Below are positions 1 through 44,400 of a stretch of DNA of 64,000 nt, one piece after another; position 1 is the first letter of the stretch; every line of letters begins with the position of its first letter. The stretch covers positions 21,886,001 through 21,950,000 of the forward strand of contig CP158635.1 in the NCBI GenBank assembly GCA_050273025.1, in the 5' to 3' direction. A model generated the notes under the pieces. It saw only the letters and a list, made by a program, of their open reading frames with translations, had not been told where the DNA came from and did no database searches. The position numbers were made by a program, and so were the translations under genes. The DNA is from Cenococcum geophilum (lineage: Eukaryota).

Positions 1-509
1 TAGAAACAGCTAAGGTAGTATAGCAAAGAATAAAAAAGTACTATAATGCTAAGAGATCTAAGGGACTAGATCTTAAGGAGGGAGATAAAGTATAGCTACT
101 ATACAAAAATTTCAAAAGTTAACGACTAAGTAAGAAGTTAGACCACGTTAGACTAGGACCTTTTAAAATTATATAGAGGATTTCACCGGTTACATTTAAG
201 TTAAACCTACTAGCTAAAATAAAGATCTACCCTATATAGTATATTGCGATACTAGAGCCAGTATATAGGAATATTAAGCTACTAGTTTACGAGGCAGATA
301 TATATAGAGGATAGGAAGAAGATAAATAGCAAGTTTTAAAGATTATTAGTTATAAGGACATCGACAATAAAATATAGTATAAGGTTAAGTAGATAGGCTA
401 TAATAAGACTACCTAGGAACCACTAGAGAATTTAAAAAATACTATAGGAAAGGTATAGGAGTATCGGAAGAAAATAGGTCAGGTAACATTAATAAAGAAG
501 GATTATTAA

Positions 510-1093
510 AGAATAAATTACCTAAGGGGGACCTAGGAAGAGCGACTGCCGAACTACTTAGAGTTATTCCCCTCACCATAGGAGGAGAGTTAGTTCTCTT
601 ATTACCCAGTTCCTGTAGACCTTATTTTATAAGTTTCTACTCCTTAAAATAAACCTTCTTACGTACTTTCTTAAGACAAAGTAGACGAGTAGACGCCGTA
701 ATGCGAGTATCCAGAGCCTTTTATTCCGCATCCTAAGAACACTTAAGTTTAGTAAGGGCCTATACCAGGTTACTATTAAGCTTTATAGTAGCAGATTAAA
801 CATAAAACCCTATAATAAATTACTTAGGGAACTTAAAGACTATTAAGAGTTATAGGACGCGCATACTTAGCGTTAGAGGTAGAGCGAATATCGCAAGACA
901 ATTAAATGTTTGCTTTAGTGCACTCTAAATAAGAGGAGGGTTACTGAGATAAAGGACTCGCTAGCGTAATATACACTAGCCCTTCTTTTAAGCAACGAGA
1001 ATACGGAGATGGCATTATTTTACTAAGCGATAGTATTATAGCAATAGTATAAGCACAACGTTGCGCGTATAAAGAAGAAGAAGCTTTAGGCAT
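510..1093 (-). pseudogene. RIP-inactivated antisense ORF of the Gypsy element, Zn2Cys6-like motif plus coiled coil
   Basis: ATG at 1093 (MPKASSS...). Cx2Cx6Cx13Cx2Cx8C spacing with three Cys retained (tgc) and three as tat (RIP of tgt). GTATGC donor follows. 3' end approximate. Confidence 0.6.
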
Positions 1094-1201
1094 TATAAGT
1101 AATAATATCAACTAAATTAATTAGACGGATATTACACCTCTAGTAAATAACTTAGAGATACTAGGTATCTTTAAGGACAAAGATAAAAAGGAGGGAGATG
1201 G

Positions 1202-1627
1202 TGTTATAGACGCTTTAAGTACAATATTACGACTACTTAGAGAAGAGTTAGAAGAAGCTAGTTAGTTAATATAAGCACGGTCTAGGATAGAACCTGTAGA
1301 ACTATATAACAAAGAATAGTAGCTAAAGTTATATAAGGTGCTACGTAAGGAATATAAGGAATAAAGGGAACTTATATACCTTACGTATAACACGTATATT
1401 ACGTATAAGAAGGATTTTATAGGAGTACGGTTATATATTTAAGGACCCTTAGTTCCTACCTAGATAGTTCCTTCCTTATAGTAATTCTTAGAATATAATT
1501 AGAGTTAATCTATTGGGCAACCACTCCACCAGTTATTATTACGTTGTTAACTACTATCTTTGCATTTCTTACACACCTAGCCTATTGACAGAACCCATTA
1601 TAGTTCCTGCTACAAGGTTCCGTTACA
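1202..1627 (+). repeat. LTR (~426 bp), same family as LTRs 27954-28378 and 35480-35904
   Basis: Begins tgttata, ends cgttaca; aligns in reverse complement to the other two copies. Confidence 0.9.
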
Positions 1628-13648: not shown

Positions 13649-13819
13649 AATCGGTATTCGGAGCAACAATCATTGGAATGGACAGCCAAATGAAGTTTGC
13701 TAGAAAGAATTAGTTCACGTTCCTCGGCCATTCATAGGGCTGAGAGAGCTTGGACCGAGCTTCAAAACCCCAAACCAACTTCCTATCCCACTCTGAGTCC
13801 TCAGTCCACTAATCCTACA

Positions 13820-14820
13820 ATGCTAGAACCCTACAGGCCGCCCGCATGGGTCGAATCGCCCTACCTACGCTCCCTAATCGTACGCTCTCCCTACACATCC
13901 TCCCAACTCCTCTTAGCACCCCAAATTGCTCTCCTCCCACCCCACTCACACCTCCGCTAACCCCCGCCCAGGCAGGCGGCCTCGCAGGCACCACCGTCGA
14001 CCTATCCCTCTACCCCCTCGACACGCTAAAAACACGCCTCCAGTCCTCCGCCGGCTTCGCGCGCGCCGGCGGCTTCCGCGGCATCTACGCCGGTGTCGGC
14101 AGCGCGGTCGTCGGATCGGCCCCGGGCGCCGCGCTCTTCTTCATGACCTACGACAGCACGAAGCGGCTGCTGCTGTCGCGGCACAGCATCCGGCACACGG
14201 CGGACGGCACGGCGCACGCGGTGCCCGCGGCTGCGGGCTGGGCGGGCAGCGAGGCCCTCGTGCACATGCTGGCGGCGAGTCTGGGCGAGGTGGCTGCGTG
14301 CGCGGTCAGGGTGCCGACGGAGGTGGTCAAGCAGCGCGCGCAGGCGTCGCAGCATCCGTCGTCGTTGTCGGCGCTGCTGCATATCCTGCGCCAGCGCCAT
14401 GAGAGAGGCTTGATTGGGGTGTGGCGGGGGCTGTATCGCGGGTGGGGTATCACGATAATGCGGGAGGTTCCCTTTACTGTGATCCAGTTTCCGCTCTGGG
14501 AAGCACTGAAGGAATGGAGGCGCCGCAAACAGGGAACTTCGACAATCTCCGCTCTGGAGGGCGGGTTTTTTGGGAGCGTGGCTGGCGCTGTGGCGGCAGG
14601 AGTCACTACGCCGTTGGATGTGTTGAAAACTCGGATGATGCTTGCCGCGGAGAAGCAGAAGATGCTTCCCTTGTTGGAAAGTATACTAAGAGAATCAGGA
14701 CCAAGAGCTTTCTTCGCTGGAATAGGCCCACGGGTGTTTTGGATCAGTGCGGGTGGGGCTATATTCTTGGGGAGTTACCAATGGGCAAGTAATTTACTAG
14801 GAGGGACCGAAGGGTTATGA
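13820..14820 (+). CDS. PET8: Mitochondrial S-adenosylmethionine carrier (Pet8/Sam5)
   Basis: Exon 13820-13879, intron GTACGC..CTAAC..CAG 13880-13971, then 'AGGLAGTTVDLSLYPLDTLKTRLQ', 'VRVPTEVVKQRAQ', 'REVPFTVIQFPLWE', 'TTPLDVLKTRMML'. Confidence 0.93.
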
Positions 14821-15001
14821 AAAGAGTGCAGAAATGCGGCAGTGCACGATGAGAGCGGTATGTAAAAACATTTGTAAAAACAACCCCGCCAAAACGACAA
14901 CATCAGAGAGAGGGTATGTGTAAATTACTATGTACAACTAAATGCATCATAGAACGGCGCTTGGTAGTAATAAATCCACTTCGAACGCATATCCAACGCT
15001 T

Positions 15002-18000
15002 CTAGCTATTTCGACTTAAGCTGCCTGCTTCTGACGACGTTTTGCGTTCGGAGCCGGAGGCGCTAGCAGCTGGAGGCGTAAGGGCACGAGGAGCGTATTT
15101 TATGTCCTTGCGTCCATTTGATTTATAAAACAGGACAACATCCCCACCGCCACGCCAAACGTGCGCGCGGATGCTTGCGAGGGTCATTGTAGGAGATACG
15201 AGCTAGGCATTTGGTTAGATTGAAAATATAGGAAGTATCTTTTGAGAAAACTACCTGATTCTGACAATAAAGCTCGAGGTACTCTTCTGGCTTCAACGCA
15301 TCTGGATCAGGATTTTCAGGTGCTGGCTCAATACGCTCTGCAACATAGTTTAAGATCTTTCGTGCTCTTAGCATGCGATTAGCGTTAAGACGGTTATTGC
15401 TTTGTCCGCTATTAGTATTGACGATCTTTTCAGGGGGTGCTATAAGAGGTATATACCCGTCCGAGGCTATGCTTGGCAAAAGGTTCTGGTACGGTTCAAG
15501 AATGAATGACACCTTAACAATGTCTTTAAAGGTTATAACATTCTAGTAATGTCAGCATGCTCGTCTTTCTGACGCTTCGTTTGTTACTTACCCGCAGCAG
15601 TACATCAGCTAACCACACCGGTGCCACCTTTTCAATCAAATCGGCTTGCTGCCCTAACGAACCGACTTTCCCTTCGAAAAGGTCTGCAACACCGCCAGAG
15701 TCCGGCCGATCTTCTTGAATTAGAATGGTAGTAGCTAACGGGGGCTTCAAAACCGGTGTTTCAGATGGTAGACTAGGTGTAATTGTAGAGGTAAGAACCG
15801 GTGCGCCCTCTTGAACTAGGTCCTCGTAGCCATGTCGGATTTTTTGTATAACGCCAAGGAAATTGTCCTCAACTACCCTATCGTCCGTCTTGGACGATCT
15901 TGAATCGGAATCCTCAGATTTCTCATCCACGGCAACGGGTTTATTGACTTCGGGGCTTGAAGCCTGGCCAAATTTTTTCTTTTTAAAGCTCATATTAAAC
16001 TTTTTAGAAAATAAGGCGTTTCCCTTCTTTGTCTGGTTAGCATTCTCCGGTTCCGAGGGAGAAAGAGGAACAGCATCTTCGGAAGTATCCGCAGATGCTC
16101 CAGGCTTTCCATTTCCATTGGCCGTTAGCGTGATAGGAGGCTGCGGGTGAGGAGTAGCTGAGAAGTAATCTGAAGAGTCCCTCCCTTGACTTTGCTGGGT
16201 CTGCGTTTTTTCCAATTGTGCGCCCTCCTCTGTTGTAGTAGGTAGGGTATTTAGCTGTTGCGTGCCTAGAACTGGTATTGGTAAAGCAGGTGTTGCAAGG
16301 CCAATGGAAAGTCCAGGTGTCATTGCAGGTAAGTGGAAGCCATTACTTGGACGAATTGTGGAGGCCGACGTTGGTCCAGATGAAGCATCCTTCCATCCAT
16401 TCGTATTTGCTTCTGGAATTTGTATACTTGGTGGAGCGCCGGTTCGCTGAAGAGAACCTTTCTTCTCCTGAAGCAACATGTGCCGGAATGCCTCGTCTCT
16501 TTTGATTTCTTTATCAATGAGATTCGAAAAAAGATATCGTAATATCCATTTGCCTAGATTTACTACAAAGATAATTAGAGCTGTGAATAGCCAGAGCGTT
16601 GACTTAAACTGCATATCGGAAGTGCACGAAGAATCATAGAAAGGCATGCTTACTTCGCTGGTCTTCCCGGAACTCAATCTTGTCCTCCAATTGTAACTCA
16701 TCGGCATACATTTCAGCGTCGAAGCAATAGTTCTCTTCGAGCACACAAGTTAGGCTTCCCGTTCTGGTATCAACAGCACACCAATGAGCGACAGTTTCAA
16801 TAGTATTCACTTCGGGCGCCACATCCTCGAGATGGCGTTTACCGAACGACTTGATTGGGGCGCACTGACGGAACTTGTTAGCATGGGAAAAGCAATAAGA
16901 CGTGCATACAAACCTGTAAAAGATCCCACAGCATCACTTCTCCTGCCGTATCAAGAGTCAAAACTCTCCTTCGGTCATTGAGCAAAACATGTTTCATGAG
17001 ACCATTCTGACCCTCAATCGAAAAGTCAGGTAAGCTTCGAAATGGAACTGTCAGTTCAGGGTCAGAATCCACAAAAGCGTCAGACGCTTTTCTCGTGGTT
17101 GTGACAGAGTACACTGTCGAAGCATCTGCATCTTTCGCCGAATATAGTGGAAAGGGAGCTGTATTTGACATGCGCAGAATGCATCTGAAAGGTAGCTTCT
17201 GACTGCTACCATTTATAGTAGGAGGGGGGCTGTTAGACGTTGGGGGTGAGGGATATCTTGTTCGAGTTGTAGCAACACTTGAGCGATGCCATTTATAAGA
17301 CTCAGGAAGCACAATTTCTGCTTCGGTTTCCACGTTGTTCCAGCGATTGATGCTAGAGCTGGACGTTGCTGTCCAAATGTATTCTCCCGCGCTGATAACC
17401 TTGTTTACACCTCCATGTTCTTGGCATACCGCGACGGATAAGCCTTCATCCATTTCCACGCAACCACGAACATCAGTCTTCGCAATGACCCCTGACCGGT
17501 CACTGGAGTAGAAAATTGATAGCTGTGGGTGGTCCGAAAAGAGCGACCAGACGCTGTCGTTGTGCATGGTGAGAGTATACATGCACCTTCCTGCGGTCAT
17601 TGACCAAACCTTAACAGTTTGGTCAGAGGAGGCTGTCATAATTGTGTCTCCATCTTGAGTAATGAGAACATCTCTGACATTATCAGTATGGCCAACGAAC
17701 TTAGTTATGCGCTTTCCTGTTCTCGGGTCCCAAACCCTAACAATGCTCTCGGGCCCACCACTGGCTAGTATGGAGGTCGTAGCAGCTAGCGCGTAGACTG
17801 AGCCTTTAGCAGTGTTCTCATCATCGCCCACAGCGATTTGTAACTTCTGTCCCCCGCCGCTTAGATCCCACAAGCTTATCTTATGATCCAGTCCACCAGA
17901 GGCAACCCAATTTGCATGAGGACCGGGTGAAGCTACGCGCTTGACGTAGTCACTATGTAGGCCGAGGGTCTGTGGGGGGCGAACATCTTCAGCAGCTGGT

Positions 18001-18474
18001 CGCCAGATCTTTACCGTGATATCTGATGATGCTGATATGAGAGCTTCATTGTTTTGCGCGAGCACAATGTCGTTAATCCAGTGCGTGTGTGCTTGGACTT
18101 GTTGTCGAAACTGCGTTGGAGGAGGTTTGTAGTTGGAACTATTAGAGTCTGCGAAAGGATCCTTATCGTCGCGGTCTTTTACATTTAGGTCGAGTCCGAG
18201 GTCCCAGGCGCATATAACGCCGTCTCGTCCACCCGAGTAGCTGATAGAAGTTAATGGAGATCCGGACTGGAGCTGTAGAGAGCGTACAGGATGGAGTTAA
18301 CTGGGTCTACGGCCAATCCATTTACCCCTAGTCGATGACCTCCAGCAGAGTTTGCCAGAGGCAAGACTATCACAAGAAGGAGAGGGTGATTAGTACGAAC
18401 GAGCCATATCAGTATGAACGAAGTAAGGATGGAGACCTACCGTAAGAGATGCGCTTCCGAGCGTTGCGCCCCAT
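15002..18474 (-). CDS. WD40 + DUF3337 protein, WDR48/UAF1/Bun107 family (deubiquitinase cofactor)
   Basis: Start [11 protein letters not shown]; '[10 protein letters not shown]', 'GHTDNVR', '[12 protein letters not shown]', '[11 protein letters not shown]', '[14 protein letters not shown]', '[12 protein letters not shown]'; multi-exon. Confidence 0.9.
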
Positions 18475-19019
18475 GCCCGCCCTCAATCAACGGACTTGCT
18501 TACATGCGGCCGAGGGTACCACGTGATCAAGCTATCTAGAACAACGGGTGGATTCAAAGGCAGCTGGTGATTGTCGCTGTGTCTCTTGTCGAGTCTGCGT
18601 ATTGCGTAACGATGTATGTACCTGCCCACCTGGACCTGCGGCGGCGCAATCGCTAAACTGTTACATTCTGAGCCGAGTGAACGGACTGGGCGCAGATCCC
18701 ACGTGGAAGCCGTTTATCCAGCATTTCGGGTGACGGATGGTCAGCGGAGTATCACTTGACAGCTGCATCACTACTGACGTTTATGTCAACCATTTTCCCA
18801 AATGAAATTGTTACAAAGGAAAACAACGAGGATTATCCCAACATCCCGGCCCCCACTTTCCTTTTATATGCCTGTATTGAAGGGACTGTTATATTCGCCT
18901 CAACTGGGTATTGCTATTTTATGTAGACTATAAATACATTCGTCCCAATGGAAACTGTATATCGGGTCCTAAAGACTCCCAAGTTTCGCTTTCCTTGCCC
19001 CGCAAAATGCGGATATGCT

Positions 19020-21544
<2,525 letters not shown>

Positions 21545-21856
21545 CTAGGAGACTCAGGACTGATAAAGTTGGATGGGAGTTAATTAGACACGTCCTGCGA
21601 GATGGAGGAAGGCAGACTCGCGCGTTGCGATGGTCGTGTGTTGTTCAAGGTTGGCAGTCGCAAGAGATTCAAGGTTCGAAAAAGTTCTTGGCAATGCAGA
21701 TGCGGGAGAGCTACAGTCGCTTCGGAAAAGGACGATCAAATGTCAGAAACCATGATCAAAAACAGAAATTTGCCGAATCCTCACCAGTTTGAACCCTTTT
21801 TCTGTACTCGCGCATGCCACCACCCATCACCTTATTATTACCTTATATTTGAAGCC

Positions 21857-24658: not shown

Positions 24659-24926
24659 GGCGCTAACTAAAATAGGAAATAATATAGGCTTTGAATAGCT
24701 TCAAAAATAGGCGACGGCGATATATTAGCTGGGAGGATGGGTGGTGGCATGCGCGAGTATAGAAAAAGGGTTCAAACAGGTGAGGATTCGGCAAATTTCT
24801 GTTTTTGATCATGGTTTCTGACATTTGATCGTCCTTTTCCGAAGCGACTGTAGCGCTTTTCTGTCGGCGAATTGACGTAGATTATGGAACCTCCATTCTA
24901 ATCAAACTGCACTTATAAATGCGACG

Positions 24927-25456: not shown

Positions 25457-27953
25457 AATGCTGGGGCATATACGAGCTGCGTCAACCTTTTGATGTTACG
25501 AGCCGTCTTGTGCAGCATGTATCCAGTTTGTCAAAGTCATAGACTCCCTACAAATATGCATCTAACGATCACTAATAAGTAGCTAGCCGCCGAATACTAT
25601 TCAATATGCATCCGTGCAGCACTCTGAGCACTCCATAAATGACATTTCCCCGCACTTATGATCGAGATATGAAATGCCGACTCGACATATTGAATACATA
25701 TATGCATCGTTACATTCCATGCTCTTATTTCCCAAGAGCACCCGAAAGAAAGGCTAGTCTATATTTGCCGTAGCCACCTGAAGTACGCCAAAACTCTTTT
25801 AGATACTAGCAACTCATATCTATATTCGATAATAAACATGGATAAGTGTTCCCAAGTTTTCACAAAAAATGAGTGAAGTATATTTTTATTTCACCAATGA
25901 ATATACCTTAAATTTTCATAAAGAATTTTGCAGTAGAATTTCCTTCTACATCTGAGATAGTCCCTCGTGGTCTAGTATTCTCTGTTTGCATAGTCCTTAT
26001 ATACCTTTATTCTCCATTAGAAAACTTCACTGTCTAAAATATTGTATGCTTCGATGACATTCCTTTCTCATTACTTCTTCGGAAAAAGTAGCCGGATGGA
26101 TTACCCAGGCACTTTTCATCAAGCCAAGAAATTGCATCCGCAAGTAACTCTCTACTAGCCGCAATCTTCAAATCAAACCTATAAATATTCTAAAGCGTGC
26201 CCTCCCGGAACTCCGAAGAATCTTTAGAGCTCTAAATGTATACCATTTACCTCAAAGGGATCGTCGATGCCAATTGTTGATATCTTGCTTTCAATTTTCA
26301 CTTCCTTTTTTGAGCCTTTTCTTTCAATTCTAACACGCTGTCCCCCCATTAAGATCTCCCCCGTACCAAAAAATAAAACTCACAAAATCAATTTTGTCGA
26401 AAAAGAAATATATGACTGACGCTTTTCCTAAGTCTCTAGCAAGACTTATCTCACCTAGTAGCATTCCACATTTAATTGAAGCAGATGTTACTCCTATAGC
26501 ATTTTTCCTCCTATCTATCCAGCGAAAGAGTAAGAATGAACCGTTTTTCTAATCGATTTTAATTCCCGCATGTTTATCTAAGGTCTCAAAATCTTGACTA
26601 AGCTCCTATAAACCCAATGGTGACCTCTTAAAAGTGCTTGAGAACTTTTTATCCTCTTCTGTGGCATGTATAACCAGACTTGCTGATAAACAAACCCCGT
26701 TTGCTAGTTTGTTTATTTATTTACTTTGTAATCAAATAACTAATCTATCTCTTCGAACACGTGCATTTTTAGATAATTTTTTGATTGGTGGCTGCGGCTT
26801 AGGGGCCTGCAAATGGCGGGCTTATTTTCTGGCTTTGTAAGCAGTTTTTACTATAAAAGGCAGGAAGAATAGCCCCAAATTTGTAAGCCCATGGTCTAAC
26901 TAGCGAAGGTGCGTACTTATAAGAAGTAGGGCATAAGCTATATATATATCTATAAGGTAAAAAAGCGAATGCTTAGGTAGGTAGGTAAATTAACAGCAGC
27001 TTTAATTAACGAGAACTAGCATATTTGAATTTAATTAAATAATGTTATTACTGCTTAAAGTTCTTAATATAGAGACTTTAAGCCGTGTACTATAGGCACG
27101 TGACTCCCTATAGACCCTATTATCTATCTCTTTAAACACGTATATTTTTAGATAATTTTTTAATTAGTAGCTGCGGCTTAGGGGCCTACAAATAGCGGGC
27201 TTATTTTCTGGCTTTATAAGTAGTTTTTACTATAAAAGGCAGGAAAAATAGCCCCAAATTTATAAGCCTATAGTCTAGGGAGAGTAAAGCGTAACTATAG
27301 CCAAATTAGGAGAAAAATATGTATAGAGAGATATATTTTAGGTATCAGCCTTATATATAAGGCTAAGTTAAAGAGAATACTAGTAAGGCGCCTAGTTAAA
27401 ATCTCTGTAAAAGGCGGAAGGTATTGGCCTATAAGGTTAAGTAATAGAGGTAGAAGGCATCTAACGTCCAGCGGCCTAGACGTTAGATCTCTTTGTCAAA
27501 GAAGCCATAGTCTAGGGCGTATTAGGCTACGCCCCTACGGAAGCTATAACCTATATACTATACGGCTAGAATGCTATAGAGATTTAGCCTTAATTTAAGT
27601 ATCCTCTATACATATAAGGCGGAAAACGCCGCGCCACTAGATGCAGTAAATAGCGGCGTAGAGGAAGCCTGGGGGTCTAAGAGGAAAAGCCTTTATAGCA
27701 CTGCTACGGGGTAAACCGCGTTAAAGGTAGCGGCTACTACAATTTAAACGCCCTGCTTATCCTTATCGGTCTTACTACATTTAAAACAGAAGGTAAGATA
27801 ATCTCTAAAGGGGCTAAACTATACGTCTAAGCGAGTAGCCTTAGTTACAGTAAATAATGGTTTAGACCATTGCTTATTAGTATAGAAGATCTCGCCTATA
27901 TAGAGGCACCCTATAAAGGCAAGGCAGAAAGCGGTATTAGTATTTACCCCTAG

Positions 27954-30900
27954 TGTAACGGAACCTTATAGCAAGAACTACAATGGGTTCGTTAATGGGC
28001 TAGGTGTATAGGAAATACAAGTACAAAAGTCAACAACGTAATAATAACTGGTGGAGTGGTTGCCTAATAGATTAACTCCAATTATATTCTAAGAATTACT
28101 ATAAGGAAGGAACTATCTAGGTAGGGACTAAGGGTCCTTAAATACATAACCGTACTCCTATAAAATCCTTCTTATACGTAATATACGTCTTATACGTAAG
28201 GTACATAAGTTCCTTTTATTCCTCTTATTTAATATATAGCATATTATATAACCTTAGTTACTATTCCTTATTATATAGTTCTATCGGCTCTATCCTAAAC
28301 TATACCTAAATTAACTAACTAGCTTCTTCCGTCTCTTCTCTAAGTAGTTATAATATTGTACTTAAAGTGTCCGTAATACTATCTCCCTCCTCTTTATCTT
28401 TATCCTTAAAGATTTAAAACATCTTTAAGTTGTTTACTAAAGGTGTAATATCCATTTAATTAATTTAGTTAATATTATTACTTATTATGCCTAAAGTAAT
28501 TTCTTCTTTATATGCCTAACGTTGTGCTCGCACTATTACTGCAATATTATCTCTTAGTAAGATTATACCGTCTCTATATTCTTATTATTTAAAAGAGGGG
28601 TTAGTTTATATTATATTAGTAAACCCATCTTCGCGATAACCGTCCTCTTACTTAGAGTATACTAAAGCGAATATTTATTTATCCTATAACGTTCGCTCTA
28701 CTTCTAATGCTAAATATATATAACCTATTACTCTTAATAGTCGTCTAGTTCCCTAATTAATTTATCTTAGGGTCTTATATTTAATCTACTATTGCGCGGC
28801 TAAATAGTAAACTATTACAAGCCCTTACTAAGTTAGAATGTTCCCATAATACAAAATAGAAGGCTCTAAATACTTAAATTACGGCGTCTGCTTATCTGCT
28901 TCATCTTAAGAAGATTTATAAGAAGGTTTATTCTAAGGAGTAGAAACTTATAGAATAAGGTTTATAGGAACTAGGTAATAAAAGAACGGATTCTCCTCTA
29001 ATAGAGAAGGAAATAGATCCGAGTAGTTCAGCAACTACTCTTCTTAGGTCCCCCTTAGGTGACTTATTCTTTAGCAATCCTTCTTTATTAATACTACCTA
29101 ACCTAATCTCTTTTAATACTCCTATACCTTTCCTATAGCGTTCTTTAAATTCTCTAGTAGCTCCTAGGTAGTCTCAGTATAGCCTATCCACTTTACTTTA
29201 TACTATATTTTATTATTAATATCCTTATAACTAATAATCCTTAAAACTTACTATTTATCTTCTTCTTATCCTCTATATATATCTACTTTATAGACCAGTA
29301 GCTTAACATTTCTATATACTAGCTCTAGCATTACGATATACTATATAGGGTAGATCTTTATTTTAGCTAGTAGGTTTAACTTAAATATAACCAGTAAAAT
29401 CCTCTATATAATTTTAAAAGGTCCTAGTCTAATATAGTCCAATTTCTTACTTAGTCGTCAACTCTTAAAATTTTTATATAGTAGCTATACTTTATCTCCC
29501 TCCTTAAGATCTAGTCCCTTAGATCTCTTAGCATTATAGTACTTTTTTATTTTTTCTTATACTTTCTTTACTAATTCCATAAGGTCTATATAAAGATTCA
29601 TTAACGTCTTTATTCTTTCTTTAGCTATACTACTTATTTTCTTTACTTGCTATAGTAACAACGATATTCTTAGCTTATATCCATAATTTGCTTTAAATAA
29701 TAATATGCCTATTCCTTCTTAAGGTGTTGCATTATATATAAACTATATAACTAGTAATAGCGATACCCAATTATTCTGTATATAATTAATATAATACCTT
29801 AGATACTGCTTTAGTATCTAATTTAACCTTTCTATTTAACCGTCTATCTGTGGATAATACGCGGTAGAAGTTACTGCTTAAACTCCTTACTCCGCTAAGA
29901 ATACTTCCTAAAATGCTGTTATGAATCTTAGGTCTCTATCTAATATAATCTTACTTAGTGCTCTATATCTTATAAACACTTCTTTAACGTAGATTCTAGC
30001 GATATCTTCCGCTGAGATTTCTTCTATACATGCTATAAAGTATCCCCACTTTATAAGCTTATCTACTATTACTAAGATTACATTATAATCTTATCCGGTA
30101 ATAGGATCTTTTAATTTTAGCAACTTAATAATAAAGTCCCATAATATAACCTTCTATAGTCTCTCTAGTATTTCGACAGGTTATAGCCCTCTATATGGCT
30201 TATGCCTCGTTAGTTTATTCCTTTAATAATCTAGATATTCCTTTATAACCTTTCTAGCTATCCTCTAGATTCCGTCAATAATGTACTCCTTTTAAAGTCT
30301 CGTCACTAAGCCTATAGCTCTATTATATCCTTAGGTTAGTCCCTTGTGGAAGTCTTCTATAAACTACTCTACTATACTTCTTAGGATATACTTTACTTCT
30401 TAATTTTCGTATATATCCGTCTGTGGATCTTCTAGCTATGCTTTTAGAATTCTTTATACCCAAAAGCTTTCCGGTGTCTTATAGACTTTCTTTAGTTTCT
30501 TATCTTCTTAAGTTGCTACAATTTTCGGATAATTATACCTAATTAACCTGTCTATATCTTTTCGCAATAAAGCCCCTAATGGCTTTTCCTTATTTTATAG
30601 TTTAGCTTTACAGCTTAGAGCATCTACCCTTATATTATCTATACCTTTAGTATACTAAATCTCAAAATAGTATTCCGCAAGCATCTCTACCCATCTAACC
30701 TATCTTTAGTTAAGTTCCTTCATTATTAGAAATCCTGTTAGGTTCTTATAATCTGTCTTAACTATAAATAGTTTCTCTATGCCTTACAAGAATGCTCTCC
30801 ATTTCTTTAATACTGTAACTATACCTAATAACTCCTTATTATAGATGTTATAGTTTAATTCCAGTAGTGTTATCTTCCGACTATAGTATGCCACTAGGTG

Positions 30901-33900
30901 CCATCTATCTTAATGTCTTTATATAAAGCACGCCCCTAGTATATAGTCTAATATATCTATTTCTATAACCGTCTCTAGACCTAGTTAATAGATCTTAAGA
31001 ACTGGCTCCTAGGTAAACAACTTTTTAACTTTCTTAAAGAGTTTTCTTTGCTCCTCTCCCTATACCTATAGTTCTTCTTTCTTTATTAACCGCGTAAATA
31101 GCTTAATATCCTTTAACCACTGCGCTATAAACCTTCTGCAGTAATTGCAAAACCCTAAAAACAATCTTAACTATATAACATTCTCTAGTTTCTACTAATT
31201 TACTATAGCCTTAATCTTCTTTAGATCTATACTAAGTTAGCCTAGTTTAATAATAAATTTAACAAAATCAGTCTTCCTAGTAAAGAACTCGCATTTCTTA
31301 ATTACTACTAGTATCTATTCTTCTTATAGTCTCTTTAAGACCCATTTAATATGTTCCCCAAATTCTTCCTTAGTTATTAAGTAGATAATAATATTATTAA
31401 GATATACTATAATAAATTCATCCAAGTATTCTCCTAACATATTATTGATACATTTTTAGAACGTTGCTAGTATATTTATAAGCCCAAATTGCATAACTAA
31501 TAGTTTATATAGTCCTTCCTTTAACCTAAAGGCTGCCTTCTATTTATCGCCTTCCTTAATCCTAATCTAATAGTACGCCCATCTTAGATCTATCTTTATA
31601 AAGATTTACGCATTACCTATTCTGTCTTAAATTTCGCTAATTAAGGGTAAAGGATACCTATCCTTCCTAGTAATACTATTTAACTATCTATAGTTAATAC
31701 ACAGCCTTAGTTTACCATTTTTCTTTAGTACGAACAGTACTAGATAACCCGCTAATAACTACGATGGTCTAATATATCCCTTTTATAAATTTTCCTAGAT
31801 AAACTCTTTTAACGCTCTACCTTCTTCTTTAGTAAGCTTATAAATTAGAAAGAACTTTAGACTTATTCCTAGTTCTAACTCTATTTTATAGTCCCATGCT
31901 ATATATTCTAATAGTTTTTTACTTTCCGGTAACCATAGTTTCTTACCGTACTTATGGTATCTCTTTAGTATATAACTTAGTCCTTTTTCTATTTCTTTAT
32001 AGGTTGCTCCTACTTAGTACCATACCAACTTGGCTTATTATTACATCTTACGGCGTTAAGTATCTCTAATATCGACCTAACCTATAATCTAATTAATCCT
32101 CAGATTATATTCCTATAACTAAGGCATGCCTAATACTGCCTTATCCTGTCCTAATGGTAGGATATCAAAAGACATTTTAATTTATCTCCCTTTAATAGTT
32201 ATCCGAATAGGTCCTATTTTAAGATTAATAATCCCTCCTCTATAGGTTATTAGATCTCCTAAAATTATAACTAATAGGTAAGATTACTTCTTTTGTCTAT
32301 AAGGTAGTCCTATTCTCCTAACTACTACTAGTAAGATATAGTTTTGTGTTACTCCACTATCTATTAGCACTTCAAACTGCTAATTTTACCAATTAATTTA
32401 TAAATTTAGGTGTTGTCCTTAAATTCCTTTAAGGGTCTAAGGCTCTACCACTAGCTCCCTCTAGTCCTATAGGCCTTTACTTTTTTTAACTATTAGCTGC
32501 TTAATCCTAATATACTTAGCTTACTCTTTAGCCAATACCTAGTTCGCTTTTTATCTTTAATATACTATAGATACGTGTTTTTTAAGCATTCCCACCACTA
32601 TCGTCTATCTAAGTATTCTTCCGTAAGGAATCTTCCTAGTTAAAGTACTAAACTTTCTTCCTCTTAGACCTCTACTAGATGCTATCTATATATATATTTA
32701 GCATTCCTATACTATTACTTATCTATTATCCAGTATATCCTTATAGGGTATTTCCAATTCTTTTCCTTTAGATTCTTATACATTTCGCATATATTATCTA
32801 CGCACGCAATCTATAATAACGTATAGTATACTAGGTGCTTTAGGTTAACTCTTAGCTCGTCTTCGTCCTTAAGTTTAAACCTTTATTGTGCTAATCTAAA
32901 CATTACAACTTTATTTGTAGGTACTAAAATACGTCTCTTACTTCTCTAGTCCTCTAAACGTTCCTCTAAATCCTTTAACGTTATAATTAAGGCTCCTTTA
33001 ATATATGTTATAGCCTTCTCTATAATTAGGTAGTTCTAAATAACTTTTTCATCCAACTATATATAGAAATCTTCCCACTTATTATTATGCCTTTACCTAT
33101 ACTACTTTTAGTATAGCTGCTAAAGTATATACAGTCTGTCCGTAAGAAAGTATCTTCTTATTGCTATATTATAACAGCCTTTTATATATTGTTCCTTAAA
33201 CCTAGTAGGAATCCCTAAATCCTCTTCTTATTCCAGTTTAGTAAGCCACTTAGCTCTTAATATACCTACTCTCGGCCTATTAGTGATTCTTTATACTAGT
33301 GCTCTGTCCTTTATACGTCCCAATGTGCTAGATCTCTTATCTAGTTTCTATTCTTACTATGCAATAATTCTTTACCTAAACTCTTCTATAGTTTTTTTTA
33401 GTTTGCGCCTTGCGCTCTAATCCTTAAAGTTATCTTACTTCTTAATCCTAGTATTAATTTTTCGATCTTTAGTTTAAACACTTCGTTTAACTAGTAAATC
33501 CTCTAGGTTTATATATTTGTCTCCTAGTCTAATTACTATTTATGCCGCAGATTCTCTAATTTATAAAGAAGCTCCTTACTTTTTATCTATAGGTATCCTA
33601 ATTTATACTCCGAATTCTTGACCTCTTAGATTCTTTAATCCTAAGCTCGCTTCTAACTTAAGCTTAGCTCTTGCCTTAGTTTAACTAGGCTTAACTAGTA
33701 TCCTTATCTTATTTTAAGAGTCCTAGATCTTACTTATCTCGTCTTAAGAATCTTATACTATTGGGAATTCTTATCCTAAGCTTATTTATATATTTTTAAA
33801 CTAAGCTACTGCTCTGCTCCATCGGTTATCATCCGTTATAGGTCCTTAAGCTTACCTTATCTTGTTTTAAGAATCTTGGTTATCTCTTATCTCGCTATAA

Positions 33901-35904
33901 GAATCTTAAGCCTTTAGCCTTTTGCCTTTATTAAGTGCTAAAGTGGTTTACTATCCTACTTCTCTTACGTCTTATAAAGTGATAGACATTATGTCTAGTG
34001 GGGTTTCGATTCCTACTAATGTTCCTTATTCTGTAACGGAATTATCCTCTACCTCTAGTATAACATCTCTAAGGTCTACTCGCTCCTAGTAAGCGGCCCT
34101 TATTGCCTTATTATTATAGAATGTTTCGCCTAGGTCGAATTTATTATCCTTAATATCCAATCTACAAACTGGTTTATTAGTTCCTCTATATCCTATAGGT
34201 GCTAGCTCTTATAGCTAATAGCTTACGCCATACTTAGCGTCCTTATGAATTCGGTATGCATTATTATAACAAAACGTAAAACTTCTAATTAAACATTCTT
34301 TTATTCCTTATAGCATATTGTCATCCCTTTATATATATATATCGTCTGCTAGTCTCATACCCTTTACTATATAGTGACTCTACCCACTTCTATAGTCTCT
34401 AACGTAATGACCCTGTTTTCCGCAATTTATATAAGCTCCTTCTTTAAACCATTTCTCTTACTATGGAGTCCACCTAAATATCTTCTGCTGTTGAGATCCC
34501 TAATTCGGCCTCTGCTCCTTGGACCTTTAATTACCTAATCCTTGTCCTCTAGGTTTCTATAGTTTGCTCCATTTCTTATAGGCTTCTTTAGTGCTACTTA
34601 GGTCTATTAGCTCTGCGCCATACTATAGTTTCTAACTTAGCTTTTATTATTGCGTACTCTGCGCCTTATATAACTGTAAAACTTTGTCCTAGCCCTTCTT
34701 AGCCTGTTCCCTTTAGTAGATCTAATTGTTAATCTTAATCGCCTAATCTATTAGTCCCCTTAGGGTGTCTATATCTTCCATTAGGATAATTACGTCCTAG
34801 ACTTTAGCCTTAAGTCCCTATTTATACTGTGCTATAAGCGCCCTATTATTCTACTCTACTTATATTACTAGTGTCTGGAACTGTATTATATACTTAATTG
34901 CTAAAGTTTATTACACGAGGTTCTAGAGTTTTCTTTCCGCTATAGTTATTTCTTCTAGGTCTCTAAATATCTGCGTGAGTTGCTTTACAAATCCTTCCTA
35001 ACTTAAGAATATAAATCGCACGTCTTAGTTAGTGGTTGTCATTCCATTTACCTATATCTCTGTAAGGTAAGGTTTAAACCACTTAAGTGCTTTTCCTAAC
35101 AAGAATAGTCCTACGTAGGCTATCCGATCCACAGGTATAGGTAACTTTGCTCCCTCCTATAAGACCTTAAAGTGCATCTGCGTAAGAAATCCTTTAAGCT
35201 TTAACCTCTTTCCTATAAATCTCTTAATTAATAGTAGCTTAATCTTTGCTACTTCTATCCCGTTAAGTCTTTCTTCTAATACTATATTATTAGCTGTTAG
35301 CTAGTTAACTATTTCCTATAGCTATCTAACCGTTATAGGTTGCTATAAGTTAGTATCCGCCATACTAGTATCACCTCCTGTCCTTAAAGTAGTTGCTACC
35401 ATTAATGGCGTCATAGTGGCTGCTTTTAGTGGTATATTATTTAACTTCTTATATTAATACTATAACTAGGTAGTAATTATATAACGGAACCTTATAGCAA
35501 AAACTACAATAGGTTTGTTAATAGGCTAGGTATATAGGAAATGCAAGTATAAAAGTTAACAACGTAATAACAACTGGTGGAGTGGTTGCCCAACAGATTA
35601 ACTTTAATTATATTCTAAGAATTACTATAAGGAAGGAACTATCTAGGTAGGGACTAAAGGTCCTTAAATACACAACCGTACTCCTATAAAATCCTTCTTA
35701 TACGTAATGTACGTCTTATACGTAAGGTACGTAAGTTCCTCTCGTTCCTCTCGTTTAATACGTAGCACATTATATGACCTTGGTTACCATTCCTCGTTAC
35801 ATAGTTCTATTGGCTCTATCCTAGACCGTGCCTAAATCAACCAACTAGCTTCTTCCGTCTCTTCTCTAAGTAGTTATAACATCGTACTTAAAGCGTCCGT
35901 AATA
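27954..35904 (-). mobile_element. Full-length RIP-degraded Gypsy chromovirus (gag, PR, RT, RNase H, IN, chromodomain)
   Basis: LTRs 27954-28378 and 35480-35904; 5-bp TSD CCTAG (27949-53, 35905-09); zinc knuckle ~34400-34435; 'LIDSG' ~32360; YL(DD) ~31395. Confidence 0.95.
28487..29100 (+). pseudogene. Antisense Zn2Cys6-like/coiled-coil ORF of the Gypsy element (second copy)
   Basis: ATG at 28487, collinear with 510-1093; Cys positions are Tyr codons (RIP); probable intron ~28715-28770. 3' end approximate. Confidence 0.6.
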
Positions 35905-38900
35905 CCTAGGATTGTGATACTGCTAGTCGCGATCTTAGTGAGGATGCTACGTAAGATTAGCAACTTCAAAGTAGCTTCTTTTAGGCTAGGGTTAAGAGAG
36001 GTTGCCCTATTAAGTATGCAACGAAGTGACGCATTCTTAAATACTGTAACATATGTTCTCTATACTACCTATTCTATAAGATTAGATAACTGGGCTAGGT
36101 ATAGTGCTACAGCCCTTATAGCGCAGAAGAACTCCCATAACTTTATGCCTAAGGCATACGTCTTACAAGTGTTAGGCTCAATACTATGCTATAAAAGGCT
36201 TAAAACCAAGTAAGATTGGCCTAATTGGATAATAAAAGCAGGCAGCGGGCCTGGTAGGTTAATAAGCGAGCCTAAAAATAAGCCATTAGCACTGAGAGAT
36301 CGATCTAAGGATAGAGATTTTTAACTATGGCCTAGTTAAAGCGGGAGAGTATATTAGCTAGTGTATTATCTTTGGATAAAATCCAAGAAGATTGCAACTA
36401 GATATTAAATGCGGTAGCCTAAACTAAGATTTATCAGAGGAGTAAATTGGCAGGGCCTTTAAGCATTATATTTTATAGGCCTGTAAGGGCAACTATATTA
36501 TCCGTATAGACGTAAATAAATAAATATTACTAGGCAGGGCTCTATTTTATAAATATGTTAGTAATAGCGAGTACTTTAAGCATATTAATGTGGGCACGGA
36601 GGTGCTCGGGGGCAGAAGATACTGCGAAGAGGTTGTCTTATAGCAGCGCGGAGGCATAAGGGCGCTATTAACTATAAGGAGTAGAATAGGTCTCGGCGGA
36701 GGAGTGGCCTAGGCAGCTATAAAAGAAGCTAGCATAACCATATTTAGATAAGGCATCCGTAAAGAGATAGATCTAGGGGTAAGTAACGTCCTCCTAAAAG
36801 AAATAAACCCCATTTTAAAGCGCTAGGGCTTTACTCTACTAAGCTAGGTCGGAGATTACTGCTAGTAGGATAGGTAAAGTGTGGCAGTTTATAAAAGAGA
36901 AGGCTATAATAAGGTCCTATAGTAATCTTAAGTAAAATCGCCCCAACTAGATAACTTTTACGGCCTAGGCTAGGCTACCTCTAAGTTACTAGCACTATTT
37001 AAGAGAGATTTAAGGCTTAAGGATAAAAGAGGTAAGTAAATCTTATAATACCATCTACTTAATAGGGCTAAGGGAGAGGAAAAAGGTATTAGTATTAATC
37101 TAATAACCTAGAACGTCTAATACTATACTATAGGAGTCTTTAGTGGCGTTAGGAGGAAAACTAAGTAGTGTAATTATAAAGTTATATATATAAACCACCA
37201 GTGCGTGGCTAGTGCCTAGGTGTAAAATAAATATAAAGTTATTTAGGTAATGAACTAGTGTAAAGAAAGCAACGATTAGATAAAAATGGCGTTTAAATAC
37301 CCAATATAGGGCTTCTGTAAAGAGGTTAAAGAAAAAGGGCACAATAGCTAAACTAAAGGGAAGGCAGCATTTAGTGTATACTATCTTCTCCCATTTAAAA
37401 CCCAGTAGGCGTTAGTTAGTAGTAGCGACCAGGATATTCTAAAAAGCGTCTTTAAGATCGCGTTTAAGAATAACGGCTCCTCTCCTAGCGAGAAGGATAA
37501 GCGCTAGAATGTCGTCTACAGTGCTATAAATAAGGGTAGAGTAGGCCTCTAGGATAGTAGCGTTAACAGAGAGGCCTTAGTAAGGCTTAGGCGAAGAGAG
37601 ATTATAAATACGGCGGAAGGTTCTATCTGGCTTAGGTATAAGTCCTAAGGGGGAATAGCAGATTACTTTAGGTAGACGAATAGTAATACAGCCAATAGGC
37701 AGATCGGTAGCAATCTTTATAGTAATTACCCTAGGGTCGGTATTAGATAAAAGTTGATTTAAATATATACGTGCTAGCAGTAAGGCAGTAACTCTAATCC
37801 GCGCGCTATATATTAGGATACCCTTAATTAAGGGGCCAAGATCTCTAGGGTATAGGAGTAGCTCATCCCTCTAGGCTAACGCGTTTAATGGTAACGGTAA
37901 AATATAAAGTGGATACCCTAGGGTAAATACCTTAAATCTTAGTATTAAATTTGGGCGTAGAGGGGGTATAAATTATTATAGAGACCCCTTACAATCTTTC
38001 TTAACGTAATTCCCTTTATATACTTTACAGAGATATTAATAGGAGTATAGTAATTTAAAGCACGGGCGGCCTATATTTCAATTACCGCATACCTAGCCTT
38101 ATAGGGATAAGATAGATATATCTGCCTAAGGGCGTTTAGATAACGCGCCACTATAGGGGGATAATAGGGCTAGGCGTAAGGTGGCGAAGTTATAGTTAGC
38201 TGCTTATAGTTTAATAGGGATAGTCTAGTTAGTAGGGTCAGTTTATCCAAGCCTTATAGCTCTTTAGTGGACAACTATAGCTAAATTAAAAACGCTGTTC
38301 CAGATAAACTGTGCAAAGAAGCCTATAATAGCTTAGTAGAATTTTGCCATTATAATAGCTAAGGGGGTTAATATGGCCTAGAGGGTTTAAACAATAATAC
38401 TATAATTAGTAAAACCCTTAAGCCAAATGCCTATAGAGGAGAAATCTTTTCTAGAGCCATTACTAAAGGTAATAACTCTTTTATCTGCCGTTAACTCTAT
38501 CTAATTAGAGTTAATTCTAGATGGGTTATTGCGTAGCTTTATAAGGTTTTCTAAAACAAATATACCCTTTTAGATTATAGTAACTTCGGAAACTAGGATC
38601 CTAGAAAGAAGCAGGTCTAGGCTTTTTATAGTAGGAGGGAGAGAAGACTTACTAGAGTTAACCTCTACCGCGTTAATTATTATAGGGTTCTTCTTAATGG
38701 CGGCGAGCCGCGCCTAGTATATTTCTTCTATAGCTAACTTCGCCTAGGCTGTGGAAGCAGTAAATACTTTAAGGGTAGCCTAGTTTAAAGCCGCCTTATA
38801 ATTACGCTCCTGCTTATAGTCTTTTAGCTCTTATTTATAAATATCCTATAGGCGCTTTTCGGCTGTAGTAAAGGGCGTAGGGGCCATAGTAACGGAGGAG

Positions 38901-41419: not shown

Positions 41420-44400
41420 GGGCTGGTTTACTAACTTTTTTCCACCTATTCGTGCCCACCTGGTCGACGCCGCCAGGTGGGTCAAATTAAAGCCCAACAG
41501 GTGGATTGTAAGCGCCACTAGCAAGCGCTCGTGCAGGGGTGTAGATTAAATAGGTAAGAGCGGTTCGTTTACTAGAGGTAGTTGCTAAGGTTGCTAGTGG
41601 GCGAAATAGCGGTGGAGCAGGGTTATATAAGCCGCACGCGGGACGTCTAAAGGCTCTATATAAAATAAGTAGTTAGAGCCTTATAGATATAATTAACCCG
41701 TTCTTAATATACGCACCTTTTTTATAGGCGACGACAACGAGCCCATAGAGGCCAGCCCTGTTAACACTACTGCCAGCGTAGCTCCCCCTGCCCCTAGCCA
41801 TAGCCATGACCCAACCGCTACCTTTACCACTACCTCTACCACCACCTCTACACCTAGTATAACGTCCTCTAAAGCTGCCTCTACTACTACCTTACTAATA
41901 TTAATACCTATAATAAAGCTGCTAAAGAAGCAAGTAAGGGCGAATACAGTAAAGAAGGATCTTATAGCTGCTAGTGCTAGTTCCAAGCTACCTATTAAAA
42001 AGACTTAGAGAAATAAGGCGGCAGAGGGCAAGGATCCTAGTAAGAAGCCTTAATTAGTATAGCTTAAGGCGTTAAGTAAGGCGTTTCTAAAGTATATAAA
42101 GCTATTAGTTACCTAAGGCAAAGAGACCAACGGAGCTACATTTAAAGCCACCAATTACGCTAACGCTATTACCTATATTAAAGTTAAATCGGGCTAGGAC
42201 CTTACTCTTAATCAGTTAATAAATAAGTACGATTATTAAAAGGCTATATACCGCAAATGGGAAGCGCATATTAAGGCGTGTTTAGGGTAAAATAAATATA
42301 AGGTTACTGGCTTACTATAAACTAATAAGGAAGGCGTTATAAAGGGCTATTTTAATAGCCATATTAAAAGGAGACCTTTTAAAACAAAATGGCCTATTTA
42401 CTATAAGCAACTAACGGAGCTACTTACTAGTAAAATAGCCCGTGGTAATTATACCGGCATAATTAAGGAGGCGCTTAATAAGGATTCGGTTTAAAACCGG
42501 GGCAATATTAATTTAAATTCGTCTAATTATAATAATAAGGATAGTAAGGATCTAAATATACCGCGCAGTATAGTTAAATAGAGCCTATTTAGTACGCCAA
42601 TCAATAGCTAAAGCCCTACTCCTACACCAGGTATATTAACACCCTTAACACCCTTAACGCCTTCGCGATCCTCCTTAGTATCCTTATTAATATCATTATC
42701 TTCTATAAGCTAATTTCCCTTACCTACGCCTAGCATAACGGAAAAGAGGGCTTAAAACACTAAGAAAGTAAAGAGGCTAGAGTTAATAAAGCGGTTAACA
42801 AAGAACGCGGCCAAGGCTGCCAATTAAAGCCATTTATTAAAGACATTAGCAGTAACAGAAGCTTTAAGTAAGAGTATTAGTAAGACAGCGGCGACGTTTA
42901 AATTATTAAAGATAACGCTATTAGCAATATATAGCTCACCAATTAAGAAGGCTATAGGTAGCTTTATTTATAATTTTAAGTACCTTCCTACTATTAATTA
43001 GTAACTTATTCTAAAAGGATTTAAGGTTAAAAGCAGGACCTATATCTTTAATTCGCTTACCGGTAAAGCTTAAAAAGGGTATATTAAGCAGCTAGTAGTT
43101 AATATAAAACAGCAGTAGTTGCATATTAAATAATTAGGGTCCTTTAGTAGAGAATTAAAGGTTAGTAGTAAGTTAGAGGATTAATATAATATTAATTTTA
43201 GCTCTAATCCTTAAGAGGTATAGGCAAAGTAATTAATCTATAGCTAAATAACCTATCACAACTTTTTTAATAGTGGTGTTGCACGTATTTATAGGTACTT
43301 AAATGCTACGCTTACAGATAAATTACATCTACTACTTCAGTCTTTATAAAGATAGGTAATTGTCTAAACGAGGTTATCTGTAACTAATTAGGTTAGTCAC
43401 GTGAGCTAAGCGAGTTTAGGAAATCCACCAAATTCCACCTATAGAATAGGAGAATCAATAAGCATCAATTAAAAATCAGTTACCACCCCTATACTATTAC
43501 AATAGCAATACGTATCACCGGAAGTAATACCGACACTAATTAGTGATTACAGATTAGGAGACGTACTACCTACGAAGAGAGACGAGCTTAATTAGTCTCT
43601 GCTTGCAGGCCTCTACCGAACCTGTTTGCTAAGGAGTATTAGTTAATATATATCTAAAGAACCAACCCCCTAATAGGCCCTTAATTCTTTATATATAGTC
43701 CTTAGGTACTTAAAGAACCGACCCCTTAATAGGCCCTTGGTTTGCGTCTATTACGTACTCTAAAAGGCGTTAGGTATTTAAGGAACCAACCCCTTAATAG
43801 GCCCTTAGTTTTGTATTTATTACGCGTTTTAGAACCTAAAAATTAAAACTTAATAAGATAAAGAACCTTAGTTCGCGTCTATTACGCGTTTTAAACCCTA
43901 TAACTATTACACGAACTTACCTGTTATTATAAGAACCACTATAACAGATATTAGGCAATAAGTTAGAGAAGGACAAAAGAAGTAGGGCAGAGGAATTAAT
44001 ATAGACTCTAATAACATTAATATTACAGACATTAATAACTTCGTGTAGTTTAAGACCTTAGAATATAAGGTCTATAACTTTAAAGATAATAAACTATAGG
44101 AAGCCTATAAGGATAATTTCTAGAACTTTATAGTATAAATCTTCAAAAACTGCAACTAGATATATATTAGAAAGCTTCGATTACTCCTACGGACTAACGG
44201 CGTATAGGTAAGAAAGCATAGGAACGCCACAGTTCCTAAATCGCTATTTAATACCCTATAAGAATAAGAACCTATAGAGTAGACTAAGCTTAAGATTAAA
44301 GAGTATATAGCAGCCGGAGGGAAGTTTAATTTAGGACAAATTAACTACCTCCTTAAAAACAACTTCGCTAGTGCCAGTACTAGTACTAGTACTACTAAAA

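Follow-up and report, generated by a model that had tools for sequence, protein, structure and literature searches.

Does a Gypsy-type retrotransposon of Cenococcum geophilum carry a gene of its own on the strand opposite to pol, and what might such a gene do? The question arises from a 64,000-nt stretch of contig CP158635.1 (positions 21,886,001 to 21,950,000 of the forward strand; assembly GCA_050273025.1), hereafter the window, which holds two copies of a chromovirus damaged by repeat-induced point mutation (RIP), each with a reading frame antisense to pol and next to the 3' long terminal repeat (LTR). An original prediction, made from the letters alone, took this frame for a spliced gene encoding a Gal4-type zinc cluster followed by a coil. 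We find that the two stretches are very probably RIP-killed copies of a real, selected and spliced antisense accessory gene of a chromovirus lineage. The gene is conserved, is under purifying selection in its own frame and is always linked to pol. Genes of this kind have been known since 2011 under the name brtn, and the find in the window is in itself ordinary, two dead copies. What is new is that the pol frame is open across the antisense gene in intact relatives, and that the LTRs carry tandem GTACGT repeats.

An antisense gene in two copies of a RIP-damaged chromovirus

Repeat searches and alignments identified one full-length RIP-mutated element, copy 1 (27954-35904, 7951 nt), and the 3' end of a second, copy 2, which is inverted relative to copy 1 and cut by the window start (interior 1-1200, LTR 1201-1627; 83% identity to copy 1 over 1587 nt). 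Copy 1 has the LTR pair and target-site duplication of a Ty3/Gypsy chromovirus, as well as its pol order of protease, reverse transcriptase (RT), RNase H and integrase with a terminal chromodomain. In its minus-strand translation, with stops read as X, Pfam recognised RVT_1 (E 8.6e-18) and RT_RNaseH (E 1.3e-23); matches to SH3_Tf2-1, the Tf2-type integrase SH3, and to an aspartyl protease were weak and under the Pfam cut-offs, and a Pfam scan of the RIPed open reading frames (ORFs) of the window gave no meaningful match. The chromodomain was recognised by a motif present in intact relatives, WYEVKWTGY...WEP, rather than by a separate Pfam score. The two LTRs of copy 1 differ at 43 of 426 aligned columns, through 42 transitions and one indel, and this near-exclusive use of transitions is the signature of RIP after insertion. 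The surroundings of copy 1 are AT-rich (GC ~0.29-0.32 over 28-34 kb) and lie beside a GC-rich gene island.

Since pol is on the minus strand of copy 1, it is the plus strand that carries the antisense gene, in the interval separating the chromodomain from the 3' LTR (Table 1). As originally predicted, frames led by an ATG begin at 28487 (+) and 1093 (-) in the two copies, with the pol domains on the other strand. The start of the gene lies 108 nt inward from the 3' LTR, and the gene ends tail-to-tail with pol, within the last chromodomain codons; in copy 1, exon 2 closes on a TAG stop and shares its final ~38 nt with the chromodomain end encoded on the opposite strand. The prediction had let the gene end at 29110, which is right as to the gene and short as to its end, since exon 2 reaches 29138, 28 nt further. 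It had also placed the splice donor at a GTATGC, from which the frames of the two exons would not join. The true donor stands 2 nt downstream, so that exon 1 ends at 28715 in copy 1 and 865 in copy 2; the first base of the intron is now A in the window copies, and the ancestral donor was GT(G/A)CGC.

Both window copies are dead, with several stops each, a destroyed donor, and 0 and 3 of the six cysteine codons left. All six of these codons are now TAT or TAC in exon 1 of copy 1, which also has two in-frame TAA stops, and several RIP stops follow in its exon 2. Three surviving TGC codons had been credited to copy 1; they belong to the other copy, at 1093 (-), and none of the six is kept at 28487 (+). 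Compared with L001, an intact metagenomic relative described below, the two window copies show 199 and 176 differences over 649 positions, and C>T or G>A changes account for 149 and 123 of them.

Relatives retain the six cysteines, the intron and the linkage to pol

We searched for relatives with the translation of copy 2 (word-indexed search) and obtained 82 related ORFs (best E 4e-32), all in single-member clusters and visibly RIPed. The six cysteine positions that had been proposed are real: in these ORFs they are occupied only by Cys or Tyr (C37/Y45, C35/Y47, C12/Y69, C10/Y53, C50/Y13 and C24/Y35, in order). As RIP converts TGY to TAY and does not act in the opposite direction, all six were Cys in the ancestor. 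Among 1.84 billion representatives, a profile search returned 229 proteins at E<=0.001; the Cys/Tyr pattern with the given spacing was found in 162 of the 227 examined, two of which have all six cysteines. At the DNA level, the cysteine codons in 77 aligned copies are TGY or TAY, the exceptions being one GGT, one TTT and two gapped rows per codon. The less damaged database proteins, among them P0122, P0231 and P0249, fuse the Cys domain with the exon 2 region and share the terminal ...SSDTPIPF tail of the window copies. No protein matched in the database searches bore a functional name.

We then scanned metagenome contigs with an 8-row alignment of less damaged proteins, covering exon 2, and recovered 75 loci. 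Exon 2 lies opposite pol in all 75, with pol ending at the 3' end of the gene, so that the linkage of homologues to Gypsy 3' ends, put forward as a check on the prediction, is borne out at every locus. Exon 1 stands directly upstream in 72 of them and is interrupted or cut by the contig end in the other three. No intronless copy was seen among the 75 loci. The intron is 55 nt long in 72 of the 77 copies, with a GT donor in 21, the RIP product AT in 53 and an AG acceptor in 71; the five exceptions in length are L004 and L063, which lack the region, L023, which is interrupted, and L066 and L067, which have longer introns. An antisense intron had been expected to survive in genomic copies, and it is retained because the genomic (sense) RNA cannot splice it.

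Intron length varies by family, being 127 nt in L066 (4961-5194), 64 nt in L067 (1173-1236) and 55 nt elsewhere. P0122 reads ...AEC-TFHVRS-AAARL in frame across the junction, which may reflect either a residue of the intron or alternative splicing.

Two loci, L001 and L002, are not RIPed (locus GC 0.48 and 0.47) and are the sole intact ones among the 77 copies; these natural relatives served as our reference in place of a de-RIPed consensus. Their spliced proteins of 197 and 209 aa have all six cysteines, spaced 2-6-13-2-8 (Cx2Cx6Cx13Cx2Cx8C). In both, exon 1 ends in ...GA(A/G) T, the 55-nt intron reads GT(G/A)CGC...TAG and exon 2 begins with GG, which makes the junction codon TGG (Trp).

The antisense frame is favoured as coding

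Three tests favour the antisense frame as coding: the codon-position pattern, the ratio of nonsynonymous to synonymous substitution rates (dN/dS) and ORFs that span the splice junction. For the codon test we used transversion-variable columns, since RIP cannot produce transversions. In exon 2, with 116 columns per codon position, such columns number 36, 33 and 62 at antisense positions 1, 2 and 3 (position 3 versus 1+2, Fisher p = 2e-5), antisense position 3 being position 2 of the pol frame. The corresponding counts in exon 1 are 24/11/43 of 80; there the third positions of both frames coincide, and exon 1 therefore cannot discriminate between them.

Between L001 and L002, whose copies are separated by a dS of 0.75-0.93, exons 1 and 2 have antisense-frame dN/dS values of 0.062 and 0.224, compared with 0.203 and 0.509 in the pol frame over the same intervals and 0.084 in the pol core. 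Finally, six database ORFs (P0231, P0249, P0251, P0253, P0254 and P0256), on contigs of 921-1423 nt, read across the junction as ...SDAEW/SRV... (slash, junction), and P0257, on a 120-kb contig, reads intron sequence ahead of exon 2. As the contigs of the six are short and no intronless genomic copy was found, they are most simply spliced mRNA.

Predicted protein and its nearest domain families

The intact protein of ~200 aa comprises a short basic N-terminal helix, the six-Cys domain, a ~75-residue helix and a conserved C-terminal tail. The second exon had been described as coiled-coil-like, and in the intact relatives a long helix does follow the six cysteines. AlphaFold2 (AF2), run on P0231 with 56 aligned rows, predicted a single long helix at residues 77-151, with a predicted local distance difference test (pLDDT) above 90, and a short N-terminal helix; both AF2 models place a short helix at each CxxC.

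We further predicted a complex of two copies of residues 28-152 and four Zn with ESMFold2, in which the alignment was not used. The homodimer model scored 0.49, compared with 0.01 for the best of three controls, and supports binding without showing it. In a calibration that held no small molecule, 21 of 30 proteins solved as one-chain pairs attained this mark and none of 23 single chains did; for eukaryotic proteins the figures were 17 of 29 pairs (1 of 7 where no older relative had been solved) and none of 30 single chains. The dimer runs share at least 75% of their contacts, with a partner pLDDT of at least 77, and the modelled contacts are antiparallel (e.g., 133 with 94, 115 with 115). A helix after the cluster, with a homodimer model, corresponds in this prediction to the dimerisation helix of Zn_clus proteins.

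The nearest Pfam family is DUF3716 (PF12511), which matched exon 1 of L001 at 20.1 bits (E 6e-4) over profile positions 3-59 of 59 (residues 23-74), that is, over the whole domain. Four of 27 members match, the others being L002 (18.6 bits), P0250 (15.4) and L067 (13.4). One Atlas cluster, 28% of whose members have DUF3716, comes third among the named clusters (0.78) and is taken as a lead only. Zn_clus (PF00172) matches seven of the 27 members at E<=10 and none at its cut-off, and most of these alignments set the first half of the domain against the second half of the profile, a single half-cluster. As both scores fall short of the cut-offs, we file the six-Cys domain, which appears DUF3716-like and Zn2Cys6-like in layout, under neither family.

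Tandem GTACGT repeats upstream of the TATA box

In U3, the LTRs of the window element carry 9-bp units in tandem, each with the core (G/A)TACGT, ~30 nt upstream (sense direction) of the TATA-like TTTAAGGACC at 28133-28145. Tandems of 8-9 bp with a GTACGT core also occur at 35700-35733 and 1383-1407 of the window, at 3718-3750 of L002 and at 637-700 of L067. There are 3-4 repeats in the window LTRs, four in L002 and seven in the divergent L067, and their position is conserved across families. TACGT has a density of 4.2 per kb in 71 LTR stretches, compared with 0.8 per kb in whole loci, and 86 of 128 sites lie 175-200 nt from the inner LTR end with a 9-nt spacing. A dense array of CGTACG palindromes was not seen, the number of sites being one in L001, two in L002, one in L063 and none in L067 or the window element. 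The U3 tandem has the look of an enhancer-like site, at which either a host factor or the protein of the element may act.

Other features of the window

The antisense gene and its host element share the window with ordinary eukaryotic genes, which occupy a GC-rich island at 8700-21000 (GC 0.46-0.59), and with other repeats (Table 1). A direct repeat pair at 43361-43540 and 49063-49242 (180 nt, 92% identity, 5702 nt apart) probably represents the LTRs of a different element. At the edge of the gene island, an inverted repeat at 21707-21828 and 24736-24857 (122 nt, 98% complementary, arms 2907 nt apart) may constitute the terminal inverted repeats of a young DNA transposon. Another inverted repeat, at 4746-5432 and 59865-60551 (687 nt, 87% complementary), consists of two copies of a further repeat family 54 kb apart. 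Three direct-repeat pairs lie at 6152-6616, 26743-27277 and 58342-58791 (109-160 nt, 90-97% identity, spaced 305-379 nt).

Table 1. Coordinates of the chromovirus copies, the antisense gene and neighbouring genes in the window (positions in nt; the sense strand of copy 1 is the minus strand)
Feature	Copy	Position	Strand	Remarks
Target-site duplication CCTAG	1	27949..27953 (left), 35905-35909 (right)		5 bp, perfect; flanks copy 1
3' LTR	1	27954..28379	-	426 nt
Tandem 9-bp repeats, (G/A)TACGT core, in U3	1	28174..28206	.	three kept, fourth RIPed
Polypurine tract adjoining 3' LTR	1	28380..28410	-	sense strand ...AAGGATAAAGATAAAGAGGAGGGAGATA
Antisense gene, exon 1	1	28487..28715	+	N-terminal helix and six-Cys domain
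Antisense gene, intron	1	28716..28770	+	55 nt; donor GT RIPed to AT, acceptor AG retained
Antisense gene, exon 2	1	28771..29138	+	long helix, conserved C-terminal ...SxxTPIPF tail
gag-pol	1	29101..35479	-	heavily RIPed
Chromodomain	1	~29101-29205	-	
Integrase SH3	1	~29326-29499	-	
RNase H	1	~30670-30975	-	
RT	1	~31264-31728	-	
Protease	1	~32116-32385	-	
5' LTR	1	35480..35904	-	425 nt; four (G/A)TACGT repeats at 35700-35733
pol 3' end (chromodomain region)	2	1..473	+	
Antisense gene, exon 2	2	442..809	-	
Antisense gene, intron	2	810..864	-	55 nt; donor GT RIPed to AT
Antisense gene, exon 1	2	865..1093	-	TGC retained at 3/6 Cys codons
3' LTR	2	1201..1627	+	
DAO-type oxidoreductase fragment		10181-10777	-	GC-rich island
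Mitochondrial carrier		13813-14817	+	GC-rich island
WD40 protein with DUF3337		15529-18296	-	GC-rich island
Cef1/CDC5-type Myb_Cef splicing factor		19023-20918	-	GC-rich island

Comparison with known systems

Our literature search on zinc-cluster antisense genes in fungal Gypsy elements found only citations of brtn and papers on DUF3716. The original description of brtn is said to be that of Zhao et al. (2011, Virology 417:248). As summarised in section 5 and Fig. 1I of PMC7264820, the Boty-like Ty3/Gypsy element (BcGypsy1) of Botrytis cinerea and Sclerotinia sclerotiorum carries brtn antisense between pol and the 3' LTR, and a passage of PMC4227169 lists a CHROMO domain for the Boty-like element. 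By these descriptions, on which the comparison is based, brtn resembles the window gene as an extra antisense ORF between pol and the 3' LTR of a fungal chromodomain Gypsy element; the window ORF has this brtn-type position. A Monilinia transcript reported in a passage of PMC5987419 matched both a truncated Pol and BRTN, which fits a tail-to-tail layout like that of the window gene, and brtn is described in PMC8365987, in the part concerned with it, as absent from the current B05.10 annotation. Neither an intron nor a coiled coil is mentioned in the passages that cite brtn, nor is a domain with six cysteines or a likeness to DUF3716. With its 426-nt LTRs and 7951 nt, the window element may belong to a chromovirus lineage other than the Boty-like one.

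Likenesses to DUF3716 proteins are of another kind. They share a fungal Cys-rich domain of ~60 residues, some members are found in transposons and one relative binds DNA, according to the passages cited here: PSC58 of Fusarium graminearum carries DUF3716 and is called an orthologue of N. crassa NCU05718 (PMC10776026, in part), and recombinant NCU05718 binds double-stranded TTAGGG directly (PMC4650311, in part). Unlike the window gene, the examples in these passages sit in a DNA transposon or in host genes rather than in antisense genes of LTR elements, and the passages describe no coiled-coil partner domain.

Antisense ORFs between pol and the 3' LTR are also described for the plant Gypsy elements Grande1, RIRE2, Retand and PvRetro13 in the relevant part of PMC7264820, where they are conserved within families and match the window gene in position and orientation. 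They differ in having plant hosts, and no sequence relation to them is expected, the fungal gene having a domain make-up of its own.

For a possible mode of action, the VANC anti-silencing proteins of Arabidopsis VANDAL transposons offer a model: these are DNA-binding proteins that recognise short repeated motifs in their own element. VANC is a model only, from another transposon class, kingdom and protein family, and nothing in the window shows anti-silencing.

Weighing the readings

In intact copies the pol frame is open across the region of the antisense gene, and one could suppose that this extension alone codes and that the antisense ORF is a chance open frame opposite to it. This is scarcely credible, since the codon-position pattern and dN/dS favour the antisense frame, a GT-AG intron restores that frame exactly, database ORFs span the junction, and six positions hold only Cys or the RIP product Tyr across hundreds of copies. 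The antisense transcript would be complementary to the genomic RNA at its 3' end, over the polypurine tract and the end of the chromodomain, and it might serve as a regulatory RNA against pol with the protein irrelevant. Strong protein-level purifying selection and the conserved cysteines make this highly improbable, although an RNA role could coexist with a protein.

Dual coding, in contrast, would add to our reading rather than replace it: the pol polyprotein would be extended beyond the chromodomain by ~290 codons, spanning the whole antisense gene and ending within the LTR, with both strands translated and one overprinted on the other. The pol frame is open to a stop ~120 nt inside the LTR in L001 (29-4294, -) and L002 (3784-7512, -), crossing the polypurine tract as well (window equivalent 27990-29100, -), to the contig end in L063 and, bar one frame change, in L067. 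When antisense synonymous codons were permuted, the pol frame stayed open in 0.24% (L001) and 0.1% (L002) of 5000 trials, and when codons were drawn from pol usage in 3.7% and 0.84%; the other two minus frames have 2 and 10 stops in L001 and 8 and 12 in L002. However, the most variable pol-frame position in exon 2 is the second (62/116), with no enrichment at the third (33/116), the pol-frame dN/dS there is 0.51, and codon periodicity is absent upstream of the antisense ATG (15/11/17 of 84; p = 0.38). Moreover, L001 and L002 share ancestry and are hence not independent trials, and a general avoidance of TpA could account for part of the scarcity of stops. We regard dual coding as a tentative possibility.

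As for the protein, the original prediction saw a true Gal4-type Zn2Cys6 domain, that is, a member of Zn_clus, and the resemblance lies in the fungus-specific layout, with two CxxCx6-8C halves that together hold six cysteines, then a linker and a dimerising helix, in the short helix modelled at each CxxC and in the weak Zn_clus matches (best E 0.0063). The usual Zn2Cys6 consensus is CX2CX6CX5-12CX2CX6-8C, with longer loops in AlcR; the gap of 13 between the third and fourth cysteines exceeds it by one residue, and basic residues are mostly missing from the interval between the second and third. DUF3716 gives a higher score than Zn_clus and is matched along its entire length, there is no visible transactivation region, and Zn_clus scores, mostly from half-domain alignments, reach at most 17.0 bits (L002 exon 1) against a gathering cut-off of 21. 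With the domain below the Pfam cut-off, no match by sequence in the PDB and low confidence in the fold of the Cys region, Gal4-type membership did not hold up and is quite unlikely. That the gene is a passenger, a host DUF3716-type gene captured once and carried without a role in the life cycle of the element, is suggested by REP9-1 and REP9-2, DUF3716 proteins that ride in a class II transposon of Zymoseptoria tritici according to a passage of PMC8232023. We consider this very unlikely: position, intron and frame are retained in 75 of 75 loci and across families with introns of 55, 64 and 127 nt, and exon 1 is as constrained as the pol core (0.062 and 0.084) at a dS of 0.75-0.93; a gene of no use to a replicating element would decay.

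What remains is a selected antisense accessory gene, whose product may act on the element itself. In the mechanism that we propose, the six-Cys domain would bind zinc, the long helix would dimerise the protein, and the dimer would bind DNA and regulate transcription or silencing of its own element, with the tandem GTACGT repeats just upstream of the U3 TATA box as the candidate target. Taken by itself, this DNA-binding regulator is possible but doubtful. A fuller version, in which the DUF3716-like six-Cys domain would be an undescribed zinc-dependent DNA-binding module whose dimer recognises the GTACGT repeats of its own U3, in a gene overprinted on a translated C-terminal extension of pol, seems to us unlikely.

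Several points weigh against the preferred reading, a real accessory gene whose product would bind DNA. The function of the gene is something that we infer only, and the derivation of the junction-spanning ORFs from mRNA is likewise the simplest account rather than a direct sighting. As 69 of the 75 loci come from a single metagenome, many copies are paralogues of one genome. The Cys region was modelled at a pLDDT of only 49-65 (mean 54.8 for the N-domain alone), the DUF3716 score stays under its Pfam cut-off (20.1 against 22) and P0231, P0249, P0232 and P0122 have no DUF3716 match. Foldseek gave 0 matches at E<=10 against the PDB, with the low-confidence N-domain model left out, and a PDB sequence profile search found no zinc-cluster protein, only a chance coiled-coil match (E 4.8). 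Gal4-type factors dimerise through a parallel coil, unlike the antiparallel dimer predicted here, and the modelled protein is cut short by the end of its contig. Connecting the protein with the GTACGT repeats is a guess; the repeats could serve a host factor. Lastly, the DNA-binding domain of NCU05718 is not mapped, according to the part of PMC4650311 that concerns it.

Significance

LTR retrotransposons seldom have additional genes, most of which lack an explanation, and repeat masking conceals this antisense gene family from fungal annotations. The gene gives DUF3716 a testable role. A conserved, spliced and selected antisense gene with a probable DNA-binding make-up suggests self-regulation by some fungal retrotransposons; if this is true, the element would bring with it a switch of its own, for transcription or anti-silencing, that can be compared with the accessory regulators of retroviruses.

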